Assembly: GCA_963833125.1 (NCBI GenBank)
Contig: CAWHWX010000004.1
Span: forward strand, 64,001 to 128,000
Length of the DNA: 64,000 nt
Direction of reading: 5' to 3'
From: Candidatus Bathyarchaeota archaeon
GTDB taxonomy: Archaea; Thermoproteota; Bathyarchaeia; 40CM-2-53-6
Below, piece by piece: positions 34,992 through 48,326 of this stretch (position 1 is the first letter of the stretch; every line of letters begins with the position of its first letter). Both the position numbers and the translations under genes were made by a program. The notes beneath the pieces were generated by a model. That model was given only the letters and a program-made list of their open reading frames with translations. It was not told where the DNA came from and searched no databases.

Positions 34992-36422
34992 GTGAACTCG
35001 TTTACGTTGGCGTCTGTGTTGAACACGCTCGAAGATTACCGGATGAAGATACGTGAAACTGACAAGCAAATCCTGTCCCTGATCAAGGAGCGCTTAGCGA
35101 TTGGGGGTCAGGTTGCCGACATCAAGCATGGTAAAGGTCTACCGACAATAGACCCCGATGCCGAAAAGGCCACGATGGAGAGCCTTGCACAATTTGGGGC
35201 AGAACTCGGCCTAGATCGATCCTTCGCAAGGCGCCTGGGTGAACTACTCATCGAGGAAACAGTTCGAGTGGAGGATCGGGTTCAACCGCAAGGTTCGAAA
35301 GACCAGTTGGCGAAAGAAATTTTCGAACTCACCCAGAAGCTCACATCCCAAGGCACCAAGGTCACAAGGTTCGAAATCGGGGAACCAAACTTCTCCGCCC
35401 CGCCCCAAGTAATACGCGGGTTGAGCTCGACATTCAAGAAGAAGCACATTATCGGATACGGACCGGCCGCAGGGTTACCTCAATTAAGAGAAGCACTTGC
35501 AGCCGAACTGAACCAGCGGCATGAAGCTAAGATTGACCCTGATCAAATCTTAATTACTCCTGGCGGCCGGTTCGGGATCTTCGCCGCGATCACCAGTTTC
35601 ATCTCATCCTTGGAACGCGTGGTGATTCCTCAACCAATCTGGCCTGCCTACGAAGAGTGCGTGAATTTCGTTAAGGGCCGGGTGATCCCGCTGAACTCAA
35701 GTTTTGAAAACCATTGGGACATGGACCTCTCGGGGCTTGAGTCAGAACTAAAGAAGGGCGCTAAAATGCTGATTCTCAATAGCCCATGCAACCCCACTGG
35801 AAGCGTCGTCGGCAAGGAGAAGTTCGAACAAATCGTAAATCTGGCTGCGAAATACAATACTATGATACTATCAGACGAGGTTTACGATCGATTTGTTCGC
35901 ACGCGGGCACCGAGCCTGCTAGACAGCGGCTATGACAATTTTGTTTACATTAACAGTTTCTCTAAACAATTTGGAATGACGGGCTGGAGAATAGCATACC
36001 TAGTTACAACAAAATCAAATGCCACGCGAATTCGACGAATACTGCAGACGGCCATAACTTGCGTGCCCGAATTCATTCAAAACGCCGCCCTCGTCGCGAT
36101 CAAACATGCGAAGGGCGAGGCTCAACGCAATGTAAAGGCGATCATGAAGAAAGTAGATCTCACTTGCCGAGAGCTTGACAAAATCGACGTTTCATTCCAC
36201 AGGCCAGAAGGAGCTTTCTACGTTTTCCCCAAAGCCAACAAACCAAACTTCGACTCAATCAAATTTGCGAAAAACCTCCTAGAGAATTATCACGTAAGCA
36301 TTACTCCTGGATCATCTTTCGGAGACTACCCGGAATTCTTCCGGCTTGCCGTATCATTACCAAGACAACAAATTCCAGGCGCGATCAAGTCTATTGGTAA
36401 GGCGATTGACACATGGCAGTAG
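34992..36422 (+). CDS. chorismate mutase (AroQ) fused to class I/II PLP aminotransferase
   Basis: N-term R.KIRETDKQILSLIKER...IK...IDP.AE; C-term NPTG, SDEVY and SFSKQFGMTGWRI. Confidence 0.88.
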   Translation: MNSFTLASVLNTLEDYRMKIRETDKQILSLIKERLAIGGQVADIKHGKGLPTIDPDAEKATMESLAQFGAELGLDRSFARRLGELLIEETVRVEDRVQPQGSKDQLAKEIFELTQKLTSQGTKVTRFEIGEPNFSAPPQVIRGLSSTFKKKHIIGYGPAAGLPQLREALAAELNQRHEAKIDPDQILITPGGRFGIFAAITSFISSLERVVIPQPIWPAYEECVNFVKGRVIPLNSSFENHWDMDLSGLESELKKGAKMLILNSPCNPTGSVVGKEKFEQIVNLAAKYNTMILSDEVYDRFVRTRAPSLLDSGYDNFVYINSFSKQFGMTGWRIAYLVTTKSNATRIRRILQTAITCVPEFIQNAALVAIKHAKGEAQRNVKAIMKKVDLTCRELDKIDVSFHRPEGAFYVFPKANKPNFDSIKFAKNLLENYHVSITPGSSFGDYPEFFRLAVSLPRQQIPGAIKSIGKAIDTWQ

Positions 36423-37300
36423 CAACTATCGTTGGCGGCACGGGGCGTATGGGGACTTGGTTCGCGGATTTTCTCTCAGCAAATGGATACGAGATCATAA
36501 TATGTGACACAAAGAAACGCCTCACCCGAAGATCGGCCAAACGCAAAGGATTCAGATTCATGACGAACGAAATCACCGCTTCCCAACTCTCTCGGCTAGT
36601 CGTTCTAGCCACGCCTACACACACGACCGTATCAATCCTCAAACTTATCGCACCGCATATATCCCGACGGACTCTTATCGTAGAAATCTCCTCGGTAAAG
36701 GAACCTATCAAGAGAACAATTACAAGCCTAGCAAAGCGCGGCTTTCAGATTCTAAGCATTCATCCCATGTTTGGCCCCGGACCGGCCAAAAACTTAGCGG
36801 GTAAAGCAATTATCATCGCACTTCAGCCGCGTGGAAGTAAATCTGCAAAGAATTTCTTGTCACTCTTTAGGAGAAGAGGAGTCGCCATGATTCCAAGCGA
36901 CCTGGGGAACCACGACCGAATTGTTGCTGCAACATTGGCCTTGCCACATTTCATGAACTTTGCATTCATCAATACTCTGAAGGATACCGGTCTGAGCCCT
37001 AACCAAGCTCGAGCCTTTGCGGGCACAACATTCAAACTCCAGCTCCTTGTAGCGGAAGAACTCTACCACGAAACACTCGAGAACGAAGTCTCAATTCTTG
37101 CCGACAACAAGTACTCAGCACAACTCTTCAAGCAATTCGCGAAACATACTAACACTATTCGAAACACAATTCACAACAGACCGCGGAGAAATTTGACCCG
37201 TAGCTTAGAGCAGGGGGCAGCCTATGTTCGGAAGGACGCCCTGTTCGGTAGGGCATACGATCGGTTTACGGCTGCTGTTGAAGCATCGAACGCCCCTTGA
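36413..37300 (+). CDS. tyrA: prephenate/arogenate dehydrogenase
   Basis: GGTGRMG, ISSVK, HPMFGP and HD..VA....LPH. Confidence 0.9.
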   Translation: MAVATIVGGTGRMGTWFADFLSANGYEIIICDTKKRLTRRSAKRKGFRFMTNEITASQLSRLVVLATPTHTTVSILKLIAPHISRRTLIVEISSVKEPIKRTITSLAKRGFQILSIHPMFGPGPAKNLAGKAIIIALQPRGSKSAKNFLSLFRRRGVAMIPSDLGNHDRIVAATLALPHFMNFAFINTLKDTGLSPNQARAFAGTTFKLQLLVAEELYHETLENEVSILADNKYSAQLFKQFAKHTNTIRNTIHNRPRRNLTRSLEQGAAYVRKDALFGRAYDRFTAAVEASNAP

Positions 37301-37304
37301 GTCC

Positions 37305-38415
37305 TTAGAGATTCTTCTTACCTAGGGTTCGCGGGATCACGCCAGATCGAAGGCAATGATCCGCCAAAACAATCGCGACTGAAGCCTCTACGACCGGTAC
37401 GGCCTTCGGAACTATGCACGGGTCGTGGCGACCAGTAACTTGAATCGTCGTGTCCTGCATATCCTTCAAGTTTACAGTCTTCTGTTCCTTCGGAATCGAC
37501 GAAGGTGGTTTAAACCCAACACGTACAACGATAGGCATTCCATTTGACAACCCCCCAAGAATTCCACCAGCATTGTTTGTCAAGGTAACCACCTTACCGT
37601 CCTTGACCGCGTAGGAATCGTTATTCACTGACCCCGTTACTGCGGAGGCCTGAAACCCTAATCCCACTTCAAAGCCCTTGACCGCTGGAATACTGAACGC
37701 GATCTTAGCAAGGTCCGCATCTAAGCTATCGAAGAAGGGTTCGCCAATTCCAGGCGGCACTCCGTCCGCTATGCATTCGACAACACCGCCCAGGCTATCG
37801 CCTTCATTTCGAGCCTTCAAAATTGCCTCCTGCATCTTCTGGGCAACATCTGGATCAGCGCAACGAACTGAGTTCGTGTACGCATCACGTTTTATTACGT
37901 CATGCTGCAGTTGTTTGTCCATTCTTATTGAATCGACCTGCACCGTGTGTGCAAAAACCTGCACGCCAATCGCAGTTCAGGAGTTTTTTCGCGATCGCCC
38001 CCGCCATGACTATTGGGGCCGTTAGTCTTCCGCTGGCACGTCCTCCACCCCGTAGGTCGTTGAACCCGCCGTATTTGATTCTCGCGGGATAATCCGCGTG
38101 GCCTGGCCTTGCGACGTTGGCTAGTTTGTCGTAATCTTGCGACCTAACATCCTTGTTTAGCGAAAGCACCGCTACCGGAGCACCCGTTGTATACCCATCG
38201 AATAACCCGGATAGAATCTGCACCTCATCTCGCTCGCGGCGTGCGGATGTAATGCTCGGGTCGGGCGGCATTCTCCTCGCGAGTTCCTCGTTCACCTCTT
38301 CAGCGCTAAGCTTGAGTCCTGCCGGACAACCATCAATGACAGCAGCCACCCCTGGGCCATGGCTCTCTCCGAATACTGTCACGCGGAATTGCTTGCCAAA
38401 CGAACTATCACTCAA
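37305..38415 (-). CDS. aroC: chorismate synthase (indel near 37965)
   Basis: FGESHG, RPGHADY, GGGRASGR and GRHDPC. Confidence 0.95.
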
Positions 38416-39677
38416 TCACATTGACCCCCAAAGCTCGGATGTCGTTGAAGTATGTTGGGTAGGATTTATTCACACACTCTGCATTTCTGATCATGACCGG
38501 GCCGCTTGCGTTAAGGGCTGCTATGGAAAGTGCCATAGCGATTCGATGGTCGCCGTGGGAATCAACAGTTCCTTCGTGAAGAGAAGCCGGCCCTAAGATA
38601 ACTAACCCGTTGCCGCTCTCGCCAATCTCTGCCCCAAGTAATCTCATCTCGGACATGATCACGTATAGTCTGTCAGACTCTTTATAGCGCAACCTCCCGG
38701 CTCCGGTAATTCTTGTTTCTCCTTCGGCATGACAACCCAGTACTGCTATAACCGGCCCTAGATCGGGACAGTTAGTGATGTCCGTGTCCACTGCCTTAAG
38801 CGCTTGGCCTTCCACACGCAACGCAGCCGACGTGAAACGAGTCGTAACGCCCATGCGACCTAACACTTCCAAGAAAGCTGAATCCGGATCAGAGCGGTCG
38901 TGCGGGAGTCCTAGAATCGTAATTTTCGACCGAGTCACGGCTGCAGCAGCCATGAGGAATGCTGCGGATGAATAGTCGCCGGGAATCGTGTGTTCCGACG
39001 GCTTGTAGGTTTGACCCGGCGTGACTTCATAGCGTGACATATCATCGTTGATGTCTACACTGACGCCGTGACGTTTCATCGTCTCAACTGTCATTGATAC
39101 GTAGCCGCGCGATTCTAAGGGTGAAATGAGTTTCATTGTTAGCCCGGCTTCCATTAGCGGGCCGGCGAGAAGCAGGCCGGAAATGAATTGAGAACTCACA
39201 TTACCCGGCAACTCAACATTGCCTCCTTTAGCTGGTCCCGCCTTAACTTGAACTCGCGTTTCCCTCGAGGCTGATTTCTATGCCCAGCTGCCTCATGCTT
39301 TCAATTAGGGCTTGAATGGGTCTCCGCATTAGCGTTTCGCTGCCTTTCAACCAAACTTCCTTTCCCGCGAGCGACGCGATGGGGATTGTAAACCTGAGAG
39401 TCACTCCTGACTCTCCGCATTCAATCGTTCGTTGCGGTGCAATGGGTCGCCCTGTACTCAAAACGCGCCAGCTCTCTTGTCCTCTCTCGAATTTTGCTCC
39501 TAGAGATGCAACGGCAGCAGCTGTCGCCTCCGTATCGTCGCAGTAGAGAGGGTTGTGTATTATTGTCGAGCCGTTTGAAAGCAGCCCTCCGAAGAGTGCA
39601 CGGTGTGTTAGCGCCTTGGAGGGAGGTGCCTTTACCTCTCCCGAAAGCACGTGGGTCGGAGCAATTGTGATATTCAA
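38408..39677 (-). CDS. aroA: EPSP synthase (indel near 39250)
   Basis: PPSKALTHR, CGESG, SSQFISGLL, KESDR and DHRIAM. Confidence 0.95.
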
Positions 39678-39679
39678 AC

Positions 39680-40561
39680 TTAGAGCCTCGTGGATTTTGC
39701 TTTCTGGAAATTGAGTGAAGTTTCAATGATCCGACCACCCAGTCTGCGCCAAACGGCGCGAACGTTCTCTTTGTCGGATTCTCGAACAATTGCAACAACT
39801 GCGGGTCCTTTTCCTGTCAAACCGGCTGCTACTGCGCCAGCGTTCAATGCGGTCATGGTGGATGTCGTGTTAAACCCAAATGCGGTTGAGTACGCCAGTC
39901 CGTTAAGTGTTAACGAGTTCCAGTAGTCACCTCGTAATGCTTCTCTGAAGGCGACTCGAATTATTGGTTTGATTTCTCTCAGTGGTGCAGGGTCGACATC
40001 ATGTGTGTATAACTTCTGCTTTGGGACGTGAACGAGAACTCGGAGTCTAGTCCCTGGCTTAAACCGCTTGAGAATTCTCCGCTTCAAATTGTCAGTTATC
40101 ACGACCCCCCCAAAATAGCATGCGCAAGCATCGTCAAAGGCTCCCGTGAGGGTGACCCCTGCACTCAGGCTTGCCTCAACCCCAAGTTTGACTACTTCGA
40201 TGTCCTCTGTTTTTCTTCCCAATGCCTTTACGCATGCAAGGGCAATAGCATTACTCGCAGCACTGCTGCTCTTGAGACCCGCAGCAATTGGTATGTTCGA
40301 TTGCGTTTCGACAATGGCTCCCAATCGTTTGCTGTAGCCAAACCGACGAAATACTCGCTTCACTGTTGCTTCAGCTAACCCGCCTTTCTCTTTGGGGTCG
40401 CTGAGGTTCCTTTCTGTGATTAACCCCGCTCGACTTGTTAGCGTCACCTTGGCTCGGGTCCACAGTTTTATGCCGACCGCTGCGCCCTTACCAGTTGCCA
40501 TGGCGTTCACTATGGTTACAGCTCCGTAACTCACTGCCTCAGCTCCTCGAGCCATGGTCAT
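39680..40561 (-). CDS. aroK: archaeal (GHMP-type) shikimate kinase
   Basis: GAVTIVNAMATGKG, GLKSSSAAS and TGAFDDA. Confidence 0.93.
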   Translation of the reverse strand: MTMARGAEAVSYGAVTIVNAMATGKGAAVGIKLWTRAKVTLTSRAGLITERNLSDPKEKGGLAEATVKRVFRRFGYSKRLGAIVETQSNIPIAAGLKSSSAASNAIALACVKALGRKTEDIEVVKLGVEASLSAGVTLTGAFDDACACYFGGVVITDNLKRRILKRFKPGTRLRVLVHVPKQKLYTHDVDPAPLREIKPIIRVAFREALRGDYWNSLTLNGLAYSTAFGFNTTSTMTALNAGAVAAGLTGKGPAVVAIVRESDKENVRAVWRRLGGRIIETSLNFQKAKSTRL

Positions 40562-41424
40562 TCGCCATTGACTCGAGCAATTGACCGGCGCATCTCGGAG
40601 ACCGGGGGTTTCTTTCCGGTCCAGATCGTGAATGAGCATGCGCCTTGACCCACTAGCATATCTAATCCGTCAATCGTCCGAGCCCCCGCTAAAATCGCAT
40701 TTCGAAGCAGCATGGTTCTCACGGGTCTGTAAACGATGTCGAAAACACATTGATCCGACCGCAGCCATTTCTTGGAGATGGGAACGTTCACATTCCCACT
40801 CATACCCATCGAGGATGCGTTCAAGATTATGTCCGCACTCTCTACATGTGTCCGCAACGATTGGCTCGAAAGAGACACACACTTGGTTTCGACACCGAAT
40901 TCCTTGCGCAAGAGTTTCGCTAACCTTTGAGCCCTTGAAATCCTACGATTCACAAAAGTGATCCGACATCGTTGTCCGGAAAGTGTGTGGGCAATAGCCC
41001 GTGCGGCACCGCCAGCGCCGAAGAGTAGAATTGATTTACCGCGAGTTGAGACCTTCGCTTCATTCAGGGCATATAACGCTCCAGCTCCGTCTGTGTTAAA
41101 TCCAGTCAAGGTGCCCGCATCAGCCTTCACAGTGTTTATCGATCGAATCTCAGCTGCCTTAGTTTCAACTTGGTCGATGTACCGAAGCATCGCAGCCTTG
41201 TGTGGAGTCGTGACATTGAACCCCCTTACCCCAAGGGATTTCAAACCTTGAATGGCGAACCTTAGCCCAGAACTCTCGACGCGAAACGGGACGTAGATCG
41301 CGTTCAGGCCCGTCGCTCGAAAGGCAGTGTTTTGGATTGTGGGGCTCATCGAGTGGTCAATTGGATCGCCGATGAGAGCGTACACCATACTGCTCCCTGA
41401 GACGTTTTGCTTATTGGATTCCAA
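40558..41424 (-). CDS. aroE: shikimate dehydrogenase
   Basis: GDPIDHSMSP, GFNVTTPHK, NTDG and GAGGAARA. Confidence 0.95.
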   Translation of the reverse strand: MESNKQNVSGSSMVYALIGDPIDHSMSPTIQNTAFRATGLNAIYVPFRVESSGLRFAIQGLKSLGVRGFNVTTPHKAAMLRYIDQVETKAAEIRSINTVKADAGTLTGFNTDGAGALYALNEAKVSTRGKSILLFGAGGAARAIAHTLSGQRCRITFVNRRISRAQRLAKLLRKEFGVETKCVSLSSQSLRTHVESADIILNASSMGMSGNVNVPISKKWLRSDQCVFDIVYRPVRTMLLRNAILAGARTIDGLDMLVGQGACSFTIWTGKKPPVSEMRRSIARVNGE

Positions 41425-42073
41425 GGGTTTGCCAAACCATCCTAAGTGCGTCTATGCTCAATTGGCCATCGGCAGTTTTCGATTCCTCCGAGACTGATGC
41501 AAAAGTGAATTCCGCACCATACCAAGGCGATAGAATTCGCGATGGAATACCTTGTAACCCCATCGCGAACGAGACCAATCTCGTATTGGCTGATTCATCT
41601 TCCACGAAACCAAGAATTGTCAAGTTATCGCTCGGTTTGAGCGCAGTGGTTACAACTTTACAAACGTCACCTCCAACTTTCTTCTCCGCTTGCAAAACCT
41701 TCCTCAATTCTTCGGAAGAAGGCGTGCGAGAAAAATCGTGAAATGATACGATTACTTCACTCCCTCTGGACTTAACTTCTTTGACTATGGGATGGGATGA
41801 GGCTGCTGAAAGTTCGATGTCAACCAAATCGAAACCTGCAGCCGCAGCATGTGATAGAAGTTCTAATCTAGGGTTCGAGCCTCGACTCGATCTGTCTGTA
41901 GCGATAACAGGGCAGAACTTTGTTTTCGCGATCTCTTCGAGGATTTTAGGTTCACGTATTCTGTCGAGTCGAAATTCAACGAGGTCGGGTTTCTTGGATG
42001 AGATTTGCTCGATGAGTTTAGCAACATTCGCTTTGTCATCTACCATGACGGACAGGCATACTTTGCACTTCAG
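41411..42073 (-). CDS. aroD: type I 3-dehydroquinate dehydratase
   Basis: VEFRLD, VSFHDF, CKVV, FAMG..G..SR and ADGQ; KVCLSV N-terminus follows a CTG overlapping the aroB' stop. Confidence 0.92.
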   Translation of the reverse strand: MKCKVCLSVMVDDKANVAKLIEQISSKKPDLVEFRLDRIREPKILEEIAKTKFCPVIATDRSSRGSNPRLELLSHAAAAGFDLVDIELSAASSHPIVKEVKSRGSEVIVSFHDFSRTPSSEELRKVLQAEKKVGGDVCKVVTTALKPSDNLTILGFVEDESANTRLVSFAMGLQGIPSRILSPWYGAEFTFASVSEESKTADGQLSIDALRMVWQTLGIQ

Positions 42074-43125
42074 CGCTCGATCACCATTTCGTCCGCTACC
42101 AAGGTGCCGAAATGACGGCCGCCTTCCTCGATCCTCAGCAGAACCTCATCGCCTGTCTTTAGCTCGGAGACGGGGGTCGAAGCAGCGTTCGATACTAGCC
42201 GAACTGTCTCCGCATTCTGAAGTATTATTGAGAAATTGTGATTGTTGGCTTCGGTTACAACGAGCACCATAGGCCTCCGTTCTATTTTCACGCGTCCAAC
42301 ATGCCCTGTTCTTGTCGCTCCAGCGCGGCTTACGATTAGTATTTCTTCTCCCGCCTTGAGTTCGGCAAGGTAACGAGTCTTCAATCCAGGCGCGAGGACG
42401 TAAGAGGAGACAGGTCCAGCATTTACGCGAAAAGGCCTAGGTTCAACATGTGGGTTTCTATGAACCTCCGCTTCGACCAAGAATAAGCCTGATGATTGTG
42501 ACCCAACGAGCATACCTTCCCCTGGTTCCAGCAGCTCGCATGTATCGATACAGACTCTAGCCCCGGGACCAATTTGCCTGACGTCAACGACCTTTCCCTC
42601 AATCAGGGGAACATTATTGCCTGGGATGTCAAATTGGTTCACCCCGTCGAGGTCAGTTGGCGAAGCGGCTGTAAGGACGACGCCATCCACCCCTAGTTCC
42701 AGTGTCTGTAAAGCGACTTGAGCTTCGCTCTTGTTCGCTACGTCGGCGAGTAAGCTGACCTTGTTCCTAGTCCTCGCGATGAGGTTCTCAAGCGGGATAA
42801 TTTTCCAGTTCGGACACTTCACGAGCACATACCGTACCCCAGATTCTGCTAGCTCTAGAACTCTCTCTTCGTCTGAATGATCCTTTACGACTATCTCCAT
42901 AGCAGCATTCTTAGGAACTGCGTCGCCAGTCCCAGTCCGCGTTGATAGAATTCTGATATCAGATCGTTCGTCTGTCGATGCCGTTTTCAGTTTCAGGCCA
43001 CTTGCGAGTGGTAGGTCTTCTGGAGAAAGCACGGCTACGTTGAAATTCGCTTCGGCTATTTTGAGCAGTTCCTTCTTCTTAGCCTGGGTTATCTTGGGGT
43101 CTAGTCGAAGCCAGAGTTCTTTCAC
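42070..43125 (-). CDS. aroB': 3-dehydroquinate synthase II (AroB')
   Basis: WKIIPLENLIA, RVCIDTC, RPFRVNAG and LQNAETVRL. Confidence 0.95.
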   Translation of the reverse strand: MKELWLRLDPKITQAKKKELLKIAEANFNVAVLSPEDLPLASGLKLKTASTDERSDIRILSTRTGTGDAVPKNAAMEIVVKDHSDEERVLELAESGVRYVLVKCPNWKIIPLENLIARTRNKVSLLADVANKSEAQVALQTLELGVDGVVLTAASPTDLDGVNQFDIPGNNVPLIEGKVVDVRQIGPGARVCIDTCELLEPGEGMLVGSQSSGLFLVEAEVHRNPHVEPRPFRVNAGPVSSYVLAPGLKTRYLAELKAGEEILIVSRAGATRTGHVGRVKIERRPMVLVVTEANNHNFSIILQNAETVRLVSNAASTPVSELKTGDEVLLRIEEGGRHFGTLVADEMVIER

Positions 43126-43913
43126 TAAGACCCCTCGAGCAGTCTTGAAGCGTCCTTTGCGTTCGCATGCTCGTGAACAATCGCTGCTAGGGCTCTGCTC
43201 ATTGCTTCAGGGTTATCATGTTGGAAGACGTTCCTGCCAAATGAGAGCCCGGCTGCGCCGGCTTTCATCGAACTCTCACCTAGCTCAAGAATATCCATGT
43301 CAGTCTTCATTCTTGGCCCGCCAGCTACGACAACTGGGACTGGGCAACTTTGCACCACTCGTCGGAAACTGTTAGTGTCGCCTGTGTAAACGGTTTTGAC
43401 TACGTCTGCTCCAAGTTCTGCCCCGATTCTCGCCGCATGTGACACAACTTCGTACTCATTCTCGTTCTTTATGTTGGGGCCGCGTGGGTACATCATGGCG
43501 AGCAAGGGCATTCCGAAGGAATCGCACTGTTCTGAGAGGCCGCCGAGAAACTGAAGCATCTTGTCTTCATCTTCCGAACCTATGTTGATGTGCGCTGAAA
43601 CTGCGTCGGCCCCGAGTCTAACTGCTTCTTCGAGAGTGCACACGCCCACTTTCAAGTTGGGCTTGCCACCGAGTTTAGTGGAGGCGGAGACGTGAACTAT
43701 CAATCCTGAGCCTTGTGTGTCCACATGTTTCGCTATGCCCTTGTGCACCAAGACAGCGTCGGCTCCGCCGCTCACTACACGTTTTACGGTTTCTTGCATG
43801 TTTTCCAATCCTCTCACAGGGCCTAGCGTGACGCCATGGTCCATGGCAATTATGAAGCTCTTAGAATCAGCTCTCATAATTCTTCGTAACCTTCTGGTCT
43901 TGCCGGATTCCAT
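43125..43913 (-). CDS. aroA': 2-amino-3,7-dideoxy-D-threo-hept-6-ulosonate synthase (AroA')
   Basis: [22 protein letters not shown] and ELGADVVKT; adjacent to aroB'. Confidence 0.9.
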
Positions 43914-43926
43914 TATTCGATCACTT

Positions 43927-44958
43927 TCAGAGGTATCCTTGTGATTTCATCGACTCAGCTATTAGGAGAGCGCAACCTGCCGCTCCTCGGATTGTATTGT
44001 TCCCGAGGGCTACATACTTGATGCCCGAGAAGACAGGGTCACTGCGAACCCTCCCGACTACCACTGACATGCCATGCCCTTCATTTCTATCGAAACGTGG
44101 CTGGGGCCGATATTCATCGGACCTTACAACTACGGGTCGTTCTGGGGCTGTTGGGAGCTTCAATTTCTGCGGTTCCGCGGTGAACACTTTCATGCAGTGC
44201 TCCACTTGTTCAGGCGTCGCCGGTTTCTCTGTTTGAACGAAGACGGCTTCGGTATGTCCGTCAAGTACTGCCACACGATGGCAACTCGCGGACACAATGA
44301 ACTCAGCCGAACGTCCCGCTTGACCTAGAATCTTGGTTGTTTCTCGCTGAACTTTCTCTTCCTCTCCGTTAATGAATGGGATTACGTTGTCGATTATGTC
44401 CAACGAAGCTACCCCTGGGTATCCTGCCCCGGAGGTCGCCTGCATGGAGGACATCACTACATTTCTCAGCCCAAACGCGTCATAGATGGGTTTGAGGGAT
44501 AGGGTTAGTACTGCCGTCGTGCAGTTGGGGTTTGTTACGATCGATCCGTCCCATTTTCGTTTTCGTCTCTGTTCGTCGATTAGTGAGAGGTGAGTGAAGT
44601 TAGTTTCTGGATTCATCAGTGGAACATCTGGGTCCATTCTGTGGGAGGAGGCGTTGCTAACTACTGCGAAACCTTGCCTTGCGAAGTCTTCCTCGATTCC
44701 TTGCGCCTGTTCAGCTGGCAGGGCGGAAAAAACAATATCCGCGTCGACGGATCTGGGTTCCGAAGGTTGTACGGTAAGTTCCGCAATCTCTTTCTTCAGT
44801 GGTGTCTCCATTCTCCAGTTTACCGCTTCTCCGTATTCGACCCCCGAACTTCGTTCCGACCCAGTTAACGCGACGATTTCGAACCACTCGTGATCGTTCA
44901 ACAATTGTACGAAACGTTGCCCTACCAAACCAGTTGCCCCGAGTATTGCAGCTTTCAA
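43927..44958 (-). CDS. asd: aspartate-semialdehyde dehydrogenase
   Basis: GATGLVGQRF, NPNCTT, SGAGY and NTIRGAAG. Confidence 0.96.
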   Translation of the reverse strand: MKAAILGATGLVGQRFVQLLNDHEWFEIVALTGSERSSGVEYGEAVNWRMETPLKKEIAELTVQPSEPRSVDADIVFSALPAEQAQGIEEDFARQGFAVVSNASSHRMDPDVPLMNPETNFTHLSLIDEQRRKRKWDGSIVTNPNCTTAVLTLSLKPIYDAFGLRNVVMSSMQATSGAGYPGVASLDIIDNVIPFINGEEEKVQRETTKILGQAGRSAEFIVSASCHRVAVLDGHTEAVFVQTEKPATPEQVEHCMKVFTAEPQKLKLPTAPERPVVVRSDEYRPQPRFDRNEGHGMSVVVGRVRSDPVFSGIKYVALGNNTIRGAAGCALLIAESMKSQGYL

Positions 44959-46197
44959 GATAATTCCCCTTTGGCAATCTGCTTCATCAAGCGCAAGGCC
45001 AACTCCTTGTCATCCCACGCGACAAATACGAGAATACTGGAAGCAAGGGTAAGCATTCCGTAGATGTTGATTCGATTCTCAAGCAAATGGGACGAGATTC
45101 TACCAATTATACCGGGGGTATCTTCTAGGCCTACGCCTTTCACTTTGAGAAATGCTAAGTGGGGCTGAACAGCCATTGCCATCGTTTCTCCATGTCTCAT
45201 GATCACGTTGTGTACGGCGGCTAGAACAGAGTTCGATCCGGTCTCTGGGACGTAGAAGATTAGCGAGTTGAAGTTTTCGGAGAGGCCGTCTAGGGATGAG
45301 TGTTTATGTATTTCCCTGATTACGTCGCTGAGTATCTCTGGGTTTTCGGAAATTCCCTTACCGGCGATGGTTACAGCCATAACTTGGCGATTTTCTTCAA
45401 AGGTGACGTCAATCTCTGTCGAGATACCGCCAGTGATAATCGTTCCGTCCGCTTCAAGATCACTCTTCTCACGGTTTATGACTCTAACCGGAATATCTGG
45501 GTCCTTGTATCTGAGAGCCTTTCTGTGGATGAACTTCGTTCCAGAATCCGCCAATCCAATGAGAGTTCTAACATCAATCTTTTCCAGCCTTCGAGCGTCC
45601 GGGATGAGTTTCGGGTCTGCGGATAGGATTCCGTCTGCGTCGGTTACTAGAACTACTTCATCTGCACCAATCGCCTTCGCCATTATGAAAGCGGTCGTGT
45701 CGCTTCCCCCTCGGCCAATTGTGCTAACTTTGCCTGCTGTGGAGCGCCCCACGAACCCAGCGATCACTGGGACTGTACGCCAATCAAGGAGAGGGAGCAC
45801 ATGCTCGCGAACCCTCTGCAAACATAGTTCAAGAATCGGGTTCGCATCAGAGAAGTTATCGTCAGTTATGATGGGCCAATTAGGTTCCCCAGGATCGAAG
45901 TATTTTGCTTCAATGCCCAGAGCCTTTAGAGCATTTGCGAAGACCCTGACGCTTGTTCTCTCGCCCATCGCTAGAATGTCGTCTGAGTCAGTCTTGTCCA
46001 GGCTCAATACTGAATCTTGGCTGATCAAGTTTAGGAGCTGATCAGTCATCTTTCCCATGGCGGATACAACCACGACTAGCCGCGGTGCCCTTCGCGCTTT
46101 CTTTCGCGATCAAGCCGGCGGCCTTGCTCACTCGGTCTTTGTCTCGAAGGCTAGAGCCCCCAAACTTGACCACTAGGGTCTTCGAACTATGCTTCAA
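44955..46197 (-). CDS. ask: aspartate kinase (indel near 46080)
   Basis: VVKFGGSS, VVSAMG, GRGGSDTTA, SADPK and C-terminal ACT domains; likely TTG at 46197. Confidence 0.92.
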
Positions 46198-46252
46198 AGC
46201 GACAACTGCGCTAGGGTTGGTTTCGGGTTTCAGCGTCGCGCTAGAGGAAAAA

Positions 46253-46330
46253 CTAGTTCGGGGAGAGTCTAGTGTGGGGAAGCCAGTAGTGATCACCGTA
46301 AATGTGACCACCGAAGTTACAACCTCTCAA
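46253..46330 (-). promoter_or_regulatory. putative leader peptide (uORF) MRGCNFGGHIYGDHYWLPHTRLSPN in the ask-aro operon leader
   Basis: TTG..TAG, 25 aa with F, Y, Y, W; 9-bp hairpin 46288-46312; T-tract right after the stop. Confidence 0.4.
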
Positions 46331-46429
46331 TTATCTCATGCCTCGCCCGTTGTTAGTTTTGCGAAGGGTGCCTCAGTCTCTTAAAAGAATAGCTCAACAA
46401 ATCAGCATAACCCTACGTCGAGAAGACAT

Positions 46430-47122
46430 TTACACGCCCATGTACAGTCGTTCCGCTAGAAAACTAGGCAGACCACTGCTAAGGATTCGATCTGCTACCA
46501 GATCCACATTGTACTCAACTCTCCGAACCTCCAACTCAACATCTCCTTTAGAAATAGTGAGCAACGCGAAACTTGCTCGATGGTCGCCATCTCTAGGTTG
46601 GCCGACGCTCCCAGGGTTTGCCAGAACGTCATCCTCGAACCTGTAAAGCATGGGCATGTGTGTATGTCCAAGCAGCACAATATTTGCGGAGGCAGCCTTT
46701 ACCAAACTATGCCCTACAGTAGCAGGCACGCCAGGGAAGACGTACTCATTCAAAGGATCACGGGGGCTGCCGTGATAGAGCGCGAATGTGCGCCCCTCAC
46801 GCTGTATTCTTGCGGATGGCTTTAGTGTGGCAAGGTAGCTGCGACTTAGCTCGTTAACATTCCGTCTTGTCCATTCGACCGCTATCGCGGCGTTAGCCGA
46901 GAACCCTTGCACGTCACCGTTAACAACGGCGTAATCGTGGTTGCCGAGGAGGACAACTGACGGATGAAGTTCTTCGAGTCTTGCAATTACTTCGTTTGGC
47001 TGAGGCCCATAGCCAACAACATCTCCGAGGCAGAATAGCTCATCGTGCTTTGGCAGTTTAGCGATTACTGCTTCAAGAGCAGGTAAGTTGGAATGTATGT
47101 CAGAGATGACTGCGATTATCAT
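46430..47122 (-). CDS. metallophosphoesterase
   Basis: SDIHSN, GDVVGYG, GNHD, GHTH and NPGSVGQPRD. Confidence 0.92.
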   Translation of the reverse strand: MIIAVISDIHSNLPALEAVIAKLPKHDELFCLGDVVGYGPQPNEVIARLEELHPSVVLLGNHDYAVVNGDVQGFSANAAIAVEWTRRNVNELSRSYLATLKPSARIQREGRTFALYHGSPRDPLNEYVFPGVPATVGHSLVKAASANIVLLGHTHMPMLYRFEDDVLANPGSVGQPRDGDHRASFALLTISKGDVELEVRRVEYNVDLVADRILSSGLPSFLAERLYMGV

Positions 47123-47174
47123 TAAGGGGTCTATGATGTGGGCTGTCTTCCTTGAGAAAGACTTGATGGTAAAA

Positions 47175-47777
47175 TTAGAAATCCTGGCTCATTTGCTGAA
47201 CGTATGAAAGGTCTTCCCCACAGTAGGGGCATGACTTAAATTTTGTATCAACTCTCTTCCCACATTCTGGGCACTCTACCTTGAGTGGATATCGACAGAA
47301 TGGACATAATGCGAAATCGTCCGCAACCTTGTGTCCACATTCCTTACACGTCTGTTCCCCACTCGCCTCTTCCTCCCGTTTCGACTGCAACGGGCTCTGA
47401 ATGATCACAGGAGGCGGTTGCATGACGCCTGATGGGGAACCCTTGACTATATTCTCCCTTAGAACTCTGTGAAGCTGGTAAGCGTCTGCTCTCGTGAGAC
47501 TCCCGATCCTTATGTTTTGAACGCCAGATCGCATGAGAATTTCGACGCTCGCTCTAACCACCCCACGGTCAAGTCTAATGTTGACCATGTTCGTGTATGG
47601 GTAATCTACGAAGCTCTTCTTGAGCCCTAAGCCCCCGGATTTGCGGATAATGATTCGCTGGTCGCTTACCACTACTGTCTCGCTGCCCTTGACAACCCAA
47701 ATGACTTTCTCATCGTAATTGATGAGATGCCTCATGTCATCTGGTACGGGGAGCGACGCCAAACCATGCGACCTCAA
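47175..47777 (-). CDS. bacterial-type PH domain + double zinc ribbon protein
   Basis: VVVSDQRIII...DYPY.NM PH-like N-terminus; four CxxC at the C-terminus. Confidence 0.75.
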   Translation of the reverse strand: MRSHGLASLPVPDDMRHLINYDEKVIWVVKGSETVVVSDQRIIIRKSGGLGLKKSFVDYPYTNMVNIRLDRGVVRASVEILMRSGVQNIRIGSLTRADAYQLHRVLRENIVKGSPSGVMQPPPVIIQSPLQSKREEEASGEQTCKECGHKVADDFALCPFCRYPLKVECPECGKRVDTKFKSCPYCGEDLSYVQQMSQDF

Positions 47778-47942
47778 GGCAACGCTAAGGTTCTGATTAG
47801 CTTTGATGATAAGATGTATTGCGTTGCAGCATCAAAAAAGCCCATGGGGCCTCTAGGGAAAAGGAGCCAGACATAGCAATTTCAGGTGTTTTTCGTCGCT
47901 CTAGTTAAGTAGCTTGTACTTGGAAATATATGATGATGTTCA

Positions 47943-48326
47943 ATGGAAATGACCGAAACAACACTGAAAGTCGGAACTAGAACTTTCAGAGTAAATTACA
48001 GTCAACTGGAGAATGCTATAGTTGCTTTCCTATTCGAGGATCGTATTCGTCTCGGAACGGTTGCGATCGCTATGCCTGGTCTGCGTGAAGTTGCTGTCGG
48101 GCGGTCTTCCGTATTGGTTGGCGGCAAGTATCTGATGACGAGTAGAGCCTTAGCGGAGAAACTTGCTGGAAAGAGCGGCCGGATCGCATTAGTTTCCTTA
48201 TCCACTGAACTCGATGAAGCTGAGGCTCTAAGAATTTACACTAAGTTGCTCGATCAGGTTCAATTGGCTCAGCCTTCCGACGAGAAGATTGGTCCGCTCA
48301 ATTCTTCAATACGACAACACGTTTGA
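47943..48326 (+). CDS. proteasome assembly chaperone 4 (PAC4/PSMG4)-like protein
   Basis: RLGTVAIAMP...SSVLVG...SRALAEKLAGKSGRIALVS resembles PSMG4 LRNLAVAM...STSLLG...STGLAQRLARKTNKQVFVS. Confidence 0.6.
   Translation: MEMTETTLKVGTRTFRVNYSQLENAIVAFLFEDRIRLGTVAIAMPGLREVAVGRSSVLVGGKYLMTSRALAEKLAGKSGRIALVSLSTELDEAEALRIYTKLLDQVQLAQPSDEKIGPLNSSIRQHV

Follow-up and report, generated by a model that had tools for sequence, protein, structure and literature searches.

Does the 5' region of an archaeal aromatic-amino-acid operon contain a translated sensor of aromatic amino acids and, if so, how does this sensor act on the first gene? The question is raised by a 64,000-nucleotide stretch of the Candidatus Bathyarchaeota archaeon genome (assembly GCA_963833125.1, contig CAWHWX010000004.1, positions 64,001 to 128,000; hereafter the window), in which the aspartokinase gene (ask) heads such an operon and is preceded by a short open reading frame (ORF) with Phe, Tyr and Trp codons. 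An earlier inspection of the letters (the sequence-only reading) had taken this upstream ORF (uORF), together with two stems and a U-run, for a leader peptide and attenuator of bacterial logic, coupled to translation and responsive to aromatic aminoacyl-tRNA. The sensor part of this proposal gains from a conserved leader and from analogues found across the class, while the attenuator anatomy is unsupported. We put at roughly 0.4 the probability that the leader region is the translated 5' control region of the ask-led operon, with an aromatic-tRNA sensor that would act in translation. The leader is probably a real sensor of aromatic supply; its coupling to ask in translation, through the +1 frame, has slightly better than an even chance; entry into the ask frame by frameshifting is a tentative proposal, with the odds somewhat against it. 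That the leader is translated, that ribosomes stall on it and that they shift frame rather than initiate internally are steps that we infer. Given the conserved leader and the class-wide Phe/Tyr leaders, a translation-coupled aromatic sensor is the most economical reading.

The elements of the leader region are given below (all window coordinates in this text are those of the minus strand). The TATA-like box, the uORF, the hairpin, the T run, the second stem and the TTG at 46197, all listed by the sequence-only reading, are present.

46380..46388, minus strand: TATA-like promoter box TCTTTTAAG, invariant in 18/18 same-genus loci
46341..46348, minus strand: purine-rich Shine-Dalgarno (SD)-like stretch GGGCGAGG ahead of the ancestral leader start
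46331..46339, minus strand: ATG-AGA-TAA in the uORF frame, conserved start codon of the leader, interrupted here by a stop at codon 3
46253..46330, minus strand: leader ORF (uORF1), (M)RGCNFGGHIYGDHYWLPHTRLSPN, 25 codons from a TTG start to a TAG stop at 46255-46253
46315-46313, 46300-46298 and 46287-46282, minus strand: aromatic codons of uORF1, respectively Phe TTC, Tyr TAC and Tyr-Trp TAC TGG
46298..46303, minus strand: ATT-TAC, candidate +1 slip site (NUU followed by a Tyr codon; +1 reading UUU-ACG in the ask frame)
46288..46312, minus strand: two copies of GGTG(G/A)TCAC, 15 nucleotides apart, which can form a 9-bp hairpin
46312-46304 and 46296-46288, minus strand: hairpin arms GGUGGUCAC and GUGAUCACU, nine pairs including two G-U, recovered as the centroid fold
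46248..46252, minus strand: T5 run directly after the leader stop, reading Ser-Phe-Ser in the ask frame
46199..46239, minus strand: second stem GCGAC (46239-46235)/GUCGC (46203-46199), found in the window and in the relative L002, ending one base before TTG 46197
46195..46197, minus strand: TTG, the ask start of the sequence-only reading, with no SD-like sequence in front
46042..46311, minus strand: frame of ask, which is +1 to that of the leader; open from GTG 46311, it covers a 43-residue extension and the first part of the kinase domain, up to a frame break
46082..46087, minus strand: one-base insertion (near 46085) that breaks ask, GGCACCGCGG versus GGCA-CACGG in L002 and L003

The predicted transcript start lies about 25-30 nucleotides 3' of the TATA box, near 46357. 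As for the uORF, its place and its 25 codons stand as proposed; it starts with TTG rather than ATG and overlaps the ask frame, which is open inside it, so that the leader is not separate from the structural gene. In relatives, the equivalent of ATG 46339 is the SD-served uORF start (L002 reads ATG AGG CAA and continues into the leader). Since this ATG is cut by the TAA in the window, TTG 46330 is the sole leader start remaining there. A clustered aromatic run is absent from the window's leader: only the Tyr and Trp codons are adjacent.

What gives this ORF its weight is its conservation. An orthologous ask is found in 17 of the 22 other genomes of the genus, which makes 18 loci with that of the window, and a short ORF with retained Phe/Tyr(/Trp) codons lies upstream of ask in all 18, as the sequence-only reading had anticipated. 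In the frame that it had chosen, the core reads x-F-G-G-H-(I/V/L)-Y-G-(D/G)-H-Y-W. The start column of the leader holds ATG, GTG or TTG in 16/18 loci, GAGG(G) is kept 5-8 nucleotides before the conserved NTG, and the 5' part of the leader changes length in frame (-3, -3 and +15), the one -1 change being accompanied by a new ATG. In most of these loci, the position of the TATA box relative to the kinase motif is fixed (-213). Family f2 has AGGTGAAG as the equivalent of the SD sequence, 5-6 nucleotides 5' of the ATG; the 3' end of the 16S rRNA of this genome reads ..GGATCACCTCCT (contig C12, near 54269). Genome-wide, SD use is weak, and GGTGA peaks with its first G at -11. About 20 nucleotides 3' of the TATA box, most members of the genus carry GATGC(G/A)C (alignment columns 83-88), where the window has CCTTCGC (about 46360-46366); this sequence may be a promoter-proximal element or an alternative start.

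A metagenome scan raised the set to 46 distinct upstream regions, which were picked by the core pattern, so that the presence of the core is no finding there. In the analysis as a whole, nine of the 80 metagenome loci (short upstream region or truncated match), L057 and L159 (no anchor or too short) and G061 (contig end) were left out. Among the 46 close relatives, the leader starts with ATG (20), TTG (18) or GTG (8), the Phe codon TTC is kept in 44, the first Tyr in all 46 and the Trp in 39. The leader stop occupies the same position, 79 nucleotides before the kinase motif, in 26/46, as TAG, TAA or TGA; the sequence around this fixed stop is variable, and no current explanation requires the stop to be fixed. 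The motif G-[GDE]-x-[ILV]-[FY], defined post hoc, is present in an upstream ORF of 46/46 f1-f3 loci versus 119 of 65790 small ORFs of the genome. At the nucleotide level, CGGTG of the palindrome region and TTTA are each invariant in 42/42 aligned sequences. Two RNA-library contigs from relatives span the conserved core. Searching the genome for amino-acid runs in single ORFs returned 86 noisy candidates, and 26 matches to the pattern of one repeat unit were found across the genome, the ask leader being one. In one clade (L005, L013-L016 and relatives), the core is spanned by an ORF in the third frame as well, begun near the promoter and Trp-rich (..EWLHFRWSHLWWSLL..), so that all three frames are open there; in the window this frame (46282-46320) is closed by a TGA.

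The case for a sensor extends beyond these families. We found an ask orthologue in 61 of the 105 genomes of the order and in 75 of the 201 sampled genomes of the class, and the 142 distinct upstream regions collected in all comprise 55 with a compact leader (at least six Phe/Tyr/Trp codons in 12 codons) and 87 without. Compact leaders are present in 13/14 loci of the order outside f1-f3 (families f5-f10) versus 1/46 in f1-f3, in 15/19 loci of other orders and in 22/24 further metagenome loci, which bears out the expectation that relatives retain Phe/Tyr-rich leaders. In families f5, f6, f8, f9 and f10, the compact ORF ends in a Phe/Tyr run directly before the stop (for example ..FFDFFYYYFYFE, ..AYRYYYYRFF and ..CFYYYFFKN). 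No flanking window of the locus attains the aromatic score of the leader in 21/21 such loci, and none of 500 shuffles each attains it for L021, L024, L027 and L028. The leader is followed by a conserved stem-loop starting at the stop codon, which in f8 has U5 behind it, and further on by an SD sequence and the ask start; the ask frame begins about 10 residues before the kinase domain, versus 43 in the window. On the strength of these comparisons, an aromatic leader peptide ahead of the ask operon is a well-founded prediction for the class. We found no published description of compact Phe/Tyr leaders before ask of Bathyarchaeia in a full-text literature search that covered titles and abstract openings, with subscription journals outside its scope.

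The two architectures share the gene, the operon, the TATA-to-ask distance (about 205-215 nucleotides in most families) and a short Phe/Tyr ORF. They differ in that the compact leaders have 6-11 Phe/Tyr/Trp in their last 12 codons, the stem-loop at the stop, a separate SD sequence and start for ask, and a +1 frame that is mostly closed, whereas the window type has a +1 frame fused to ask. Many compact leaders (L104-L144 and L148-L160, about 170-100 nucleotides 5' of ask) contain a Thr/Ser-rich stretch (STTSTTNS, ATTTTT), often with Met, just before the Phe/Tyr run; as the first enzyme is aspartokinase, the compact leader may also read the supply of the aspartate family. Over the same bases, the ask frame of the window is Thr-rich (VVTFTVITTG).

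How the window-type leader communicates with ask is suggested by its frame relationship. Leaders of this type, which occur in five families belonging to at least three orders (f1, f2 and f3, together with f14 and f27 from other orders), have few aromatic codons, each in a five-codon G-(G/D)-x-(I/V/L)-(F/Y) unit. The +1 frame is fused to ask in 17/18 loci of the genus, 14/14 of genus g2 and 10/12 of f2, and where it is unfused (L019, L029, L022 and L055), it stops two nucleotides before the ask start codon or overlaps it. From the leader core onwards, 45/46 close relatives keep the ask frame open and in phase. In 44 distinct close relatives, the spacer that leads from the core to the kinase motif has nine different lengths, all in phase; L017 is the sole exception, and a single base sets it apart from its near-twin L018. 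Frame classes had been assigned from the best aromatic ORF; as this ORF is often not the leader, we replaced them by a count based on sites. An NTT-T(A/T)Y site lies inside a started ORF in 83 of the 87 non-compact regions. From these sites, the +1 frame is fused to ask in 75 cases and ends at the ask start codon in seven (82/83), while the +2 frame is never fused, ends at the ask start in four cases and meets an early stop in 71.

The site itself is constrained. The codon before the first Tyr is ATT (29), CTT (9) or GTT (8) in the 46 close relatives, and no other Ile, Val or Leu codon occurs: NTT is found in 46/46, although ATT, GTT and CTT make up only 0.32, 0.29 and 0.18 of the codons of their amino acids. 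Likewise, TTT is never replaced by TTC, a change that would be silent in the ask frame, although TTC accounts for 0.70 of Phe codons. This codon choice points clearly to constraint at the nucleotide level; the invariant letters of the slip site would be equally required if both frames code.

In several loci, the connecting frame offers no obvious place to start. L165 has a 57-codon +1 ORF without ATG, GTG or TTG, whose TAG overlaps the TTG of ask; L166 has no start codon until three codons before the TGA that overlaps the ATG of ask; and the +1 frame of L164 has no start codon at or after the leader start. In L163 and L164, the +1 frame ends in TAATG and ATGA, respectively, at ATGs of the ask frame. 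In the three loci without a usable start in the connecting frame (L164-L166, from two f27 genomes and one f14 genome), the operon is again the ask-led aromatic one. Closer to the window, 6/45 close relatives have no ATG, GTG or TTG between the uORF core and the kinase domain, their only starts being inside the core, and an in-frame TTG is present at the position of 46197 in about half. TTG 46197, proposed as the start of ask, is therefore probably not the start, the ask frame being open from 46311. The sequence-only reading had treated a start of ask at GTG 46311 as excluding the leader. The ask frame is indeed open from there, and the uORF nevertheless stands, both overlapping frames being conserved. 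Gene callers assign three different starts to aspartokinase, and the variability of these called starts means that the finding bears on the annotation of this enzyme. Stop-codon readthrough was also considered as a route into ask: the leader of L165 is in the ask frame with a single TAG between, but two stops intervene in L166, and this candidate was set aside.

Which of the two frames is under selection can be judged from the ratio of nonsynonymous to synonymous change (pN/pS). In the ask frame versus the leader frame, it is 0.78 versus 1.60 in the core, 0.63 versus 1.01 in the tail and 0.68 versus 0.97 in the spacer; the leader frame has a start, an SD sequence and a stop position of its own. 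Taken together, the patterns of change indicate selection on both frames. The AA_kinase profile of Pfam begins at residue 44 of the ORF opening at GTG 46311. The 43-residue extension encoded in the ask frame thus lies outside the kinase domain; it is poorly conserved (pN/pS 0.63-0.68) and predicted to be disordered (predicted local distance difference test score (pLDDT) of 24-32 for residues 1-42, against a model mean of 75.6). This suggests that it is the translation of the extension that matters, and not the peptide.

The mechanism that we propose would run as follows. The promoter at 46388-46380 would give a transcript whose first frame is a short, SD-served leader ORF (46330-46253). With plentiful charged tRNA-Tyr and tRNA-Phe, ribosomes would finish the leader and stop at 46253. 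If decoding of a Tyr or Phe codon is delayed, the peptidyl-tRNA on the preceding NUU (AUU-UAC, 46303-46298) would slip +1 onto UUU, and the ribosome would continue in the ask frame, so that aspartokinase is made; the rest of the operon would follow through overlapping stop and start codons and through an mRNA kept covered. A +1 slip fits the anatomy, that is, a single SD-served start, NTT before the aromatic codons, an open +1 frame, connecting frames without a start in some lineages and an extension indifferent to its sequence. In its general form, the proposal is that hungry aromatic codons are the signal of a programmed +1 frameshift in Bathyarchaeia, with the leader as the sole site of initiation and a slip at NUU-UAY or NUU-UUC into a frame that is fused to aspartokinase or ends on its start codon; we hold this form still more tentatively than the frameshift as such, and regard it as possible rather than probable.

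The closest parallels are the +1 frameshifts of the release factor 2 (RF2) gene and of antizyme, which combine a short zero-frame ORF, a main product in the +1 frame, an NUU-type codon in the P site with a slow U-initial codon in the A site, and an SD-like element a few bases upstream (in RF2, in a strained short register); there too, the level of a decoding factor sets the yield. Here, the slow codon would be a sense codon for a product of the pathway and not a stop, the SD-like element appears to be in an initiation-like register, and the shift is a proposal from sequence. An RF2-like strain exerted by the SD-like repeat was set aside, the register to NUU looking initiation-like. In the passages of PMC5009743 that we draw on, which also deal with frameshifting in archaea, the Ty1 site CUU_AGG_C is described and slow A-site codons are said to favour +1 shifts; of starvation-specific products of hungry-codon frameshifting, the same passages state that 'no examples are known'.

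The operon downstream has the gene content expected of a nine-gene, ask-led aromatic operon, as confirmed by Pfam:

44955..46073, minus strand: remainder of ask, with AA_kinase and ACT domains (Pfam)
37305..44958, minus strand: asd, ADH synthase (DeoC family), dehydroquinate synthase II, aroD, aroE, GHMP-type shikimate kinase, aroA (split) and aroC (split) (Pfam)

A metallophosphoesterase gene lies upstream of ask on the same strand. The order ask, (asd,) ADH synthase, dehydroquinate synthase II, aroD, aroE, shikimate kinase is shared by the relatives G031, G036, G198 and G108, and aroA, aroC and chorismate mutase/prephenate dehydratase also belong to the operon where the fetched locus extended far enough (G031, G036). 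On the plus strand, a chorismate mutase-class I/II aminotransferase fusion and then prephenate dehydrogenase (34992-37300) face the end of the aro operon in convergent orientation; the fusion has no evident leader ORF in front of it, and in relatives with compact leaders the operon ends with chorismate mutase/prephenate dehydratase instead. Elsewhere on the same contig (C4:146326-150087), the region upstream of trpE contains a TATA-like box; its ORF of 7 codons lacks Trp, and no Trp leader was seen there.

Three of the nine operon genes are split between frames: ask (46082-46087), aroA (39211-39243) and aroC (37900-37964). The ask frame of the relatives is unbroken (450-463 codons). In the genome of the window, a second aspartokinase on another contig (C36:8581-9562) is also broken, as is one of four long class-I tRNA synthetase genes (C19:78318-79914). 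Such a number of broken genes implies either indel errors in the assembly or pseudogenes and decay in the organism, and single-base details of the window are to be read accordingly.

Several points weigh against our reading. The organism is uncultured, and the window's own copy combines a stop at codon 3 of the ancestral leader with a broken ask, be it through assembly error or decay. Its uORF is unremarkable: four Phe/Tyr/Trp in 12 codons are attained when the 240 nucleotides upstream are shuffled with dinucleotides preserved (108 of 500 shuffles), as well as in 4315 of 82098 small ORFs of the genome, and the 106-nucleotide leader RNA folds no better than shuffles (z = 0.07). Taken alone, it is within chance, and it owes its significance to conservation in relatives only. 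These relatives are related to each other, so that counts across them are not independent, and the leader motif and both architecture classes were defined after viewing the same sequences. Over the core and the tail, the ask frame has the lower pN/pS of the two, and the aromatic codons could be by-products of Phe-Ser and Phe-Thr codons in the ask frame. The latter has candidate starts of its own in the window (GTG 46311, GTG 46296 and TTG 46197), and throughout the genus it holds invariant GTGs (46311, 46296), often an ATG, which makes internal initiation possible. By our own reckoning, the SD-like repeat stands in an initiation-like register to the NUU codon. The +1 frame meets an early stop in 45/55 compact-leader regions, and at least two mechanisms would therefore coexist in one class. 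Finally, the best match among the sequencing runs contained 0.23 of the sampled words, and the RNA libraries yielded only read-length contigs (151-252 nucleotides) of relatives, which are silent on transcript ends, strand and level and of which none reaches the frame break in ask.

Among the alternatives, the one that departs least from our reading keeps the same sensor and has the ask frame entered by internal initiation. The start would be TTG 46197 or one of the GTGs at 46311 and 46296, for which many relatives have ATG, and translation of the leader or stalling on it would modulate access by occlusion or by melting of the hairpin, as in ermC. Each GGTG(G/A)TCAC copy does contain a GTG of the ask frame (46311, 46296), invariant at both repeats (CGGTG, 42/42); an ATG stands at the second repeat in 19/46 (TAT codon); both core repeats (GGTGGTC and GGTGATC) are complementary to the GAUCACC at the 3' end of the 16S rRNA, the first lying 6-9 nucleotides before that ATG/GTG; and gene callers place starts there (products of 444-455 residues). 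GTG 46296, however, lies 5 nucleotides beyond the genome-wide GGTGA peak at -11. The hairpin counts both for and against this explanation. Its pairing is kept in 95.2% of cells, yet it shows zero compensatory changes, its variation being one-sided and wobble-compatible, and 142/500 shuffles do as well; the arms pair because they are two copies of a near-palindrome that is also complementary to the 16S GAUCACC. (A repeat search with a 6-nucleotide seed detected nothing, as the two copies differ in every 6-mer window.) Moreover, to judge from footprint sizes, a ribosome stalled at the Phe/Tyr codons would cover the candidate starts. Starvation would then repress the operon, which makes no sense for a biosynthetic operon. 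Lastly, canonical start codons are missing from the connecting frame of L165 and L166. In passages of PMC10219788, ermC/ermCL translational attenuation likewise joins a leader ORF to a hairpin holding the start region of the downstream frame; the present hairpin differs in lying within the leader and in having no covariation, and the stalled ribosome would cover rather than free the candidate starts. The introduction of PMC10219788 also states that uORFs regulate genes in archaea, without an example in those passages. We consider internal initiation unlikely.

Equally unlikely, in our judgement, is that this lineage has no amino-acid sensor, the core encoding the N-terminus of a longer aspartokinase with its start at GTG 46311, and the short ORF being a by-product or a uORF with a constitutive damping effect. 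This would account for the better coding signature of the ask frame in the core, tail and linker, for its being open and in phase in 45/46 relatives and for the chance-level aromatic content of the window's uORF; the Phe and Tyr codons of the leader would be a necessary consequence of TTT-TCN and TTT-ACN in the ask frame. It does not explain why the leader start varies only among ATG, GTG and TTG, with an SD sequence placed for it and not for the GTG four nucleotides further on (f2, g2), nor why the leader stop is kept at one position with the use of all three stop codons, why indels in the 5' part of the leader are in frame or why TTT never becomes TTC. In L019, L029, L022, L055 and L163-L166, the second frame is outside aspartokinase and yet spans the distance from the leader to the ask start, and the positional homologues in sister lineages are unmistakable Phe/Tyr leaders. 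The predicted disorder of the extension also speaks against an N-terminal coding role.

The ribosome-mediated transcription attenuation put forward by the sequence-only reading, in which a stalling-dependent fold decides on termination at the U-run, appears very unlikely. The bacterial leader-peptide attenuators (pheL-pheA, trpL, thrL) also have a short ORF with codons for the end product ahead of a biosynthetic operon, the speed of the ribosome being the signal; PMC3082878 describes pheL in those terms and mentions incidental +1 frameshifting of pheL. The window differs from them by the lack of a terminator/antiterminator pair, by dispersed regulatory codons, by a leader that overlaps the frame of the gene, by the archaeal host and by its likely output, translation. 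Archaea couple transcription and translation, and they lack hairpin terminators of the bacterial type. Archaeal polymerases do terminate at oligo-U, and U5 directly follows the leader stop in the window and five close relatives; family f8 has a 14-bp stem and U5 after the leader, and other families with compact leaders have a conserved stem from the leader stop. In the remaining 40/46 close relatives, however, the U-run that was to serve as terminator is absent, T5 or longer occurring in 6/46 only, and its place is within the ask frame, whose openness is conserved. It has no terminator hairpin next to it (the 9-bp hairpin stops 36 nucleotides short of it), a terminator scan detected no terminator-like site on the minus strand in the leader, and a stalled ribosome that uncouples translation from transcription would, with no antiterminator present, make termination more frequent and not rarer. 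Nor did the proposed folds hold up: the second stem GCGAC/GUCGC is absent from the genus consensus fold, which contains a single hairpin and no other conserved structure that could serve as an alternative. Rfam 15 gave no relevant match, either in the window (44000-48000, E up to 1) or in the loci of nine relatives (E up to 0.1).

It is hardly credible that a transcription factor binds the two near-palindromic GTGATCAC repeats as its DNA operator, downstream of the start site: GTGATCAC is a perfect palindrome in two copies 15 bp apart with very high nucleotide conservation, but genus g2 has a single copy, f2, f3, f14 and f27 keep the codon pattern and not the palindrome, a position about 45-70 nucleotides 3' of the predicted start site is unusual for an archaeal repressor, and the conservation of frame would be left unexplained.

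Whether ribosome-mediated leader peptides control amino-acid operons in archaea is a long-standing question (the literature search described above, with its scope, returned no report of such control), and it now has a class-wide comparative case: aromatic leader ORFs before one defined operon, in two architectures that can be compared with each other. In the architecture of the window, an out-of-frame overlap would link the sensor with the first enzyme, a feature that leader-peptide models do not predict. If the frameshift is true, it would be the first hungry-codon frameshift found to be utilised, and would constitute a new class of amino-acid sensor beside attenuators, T-boxes and riboswitches. 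Amino-acid shortage would then be converted directly into translation of the first enzyme of the pathway, and the gap named in the passages of PMC5009743 cited above would be filled.

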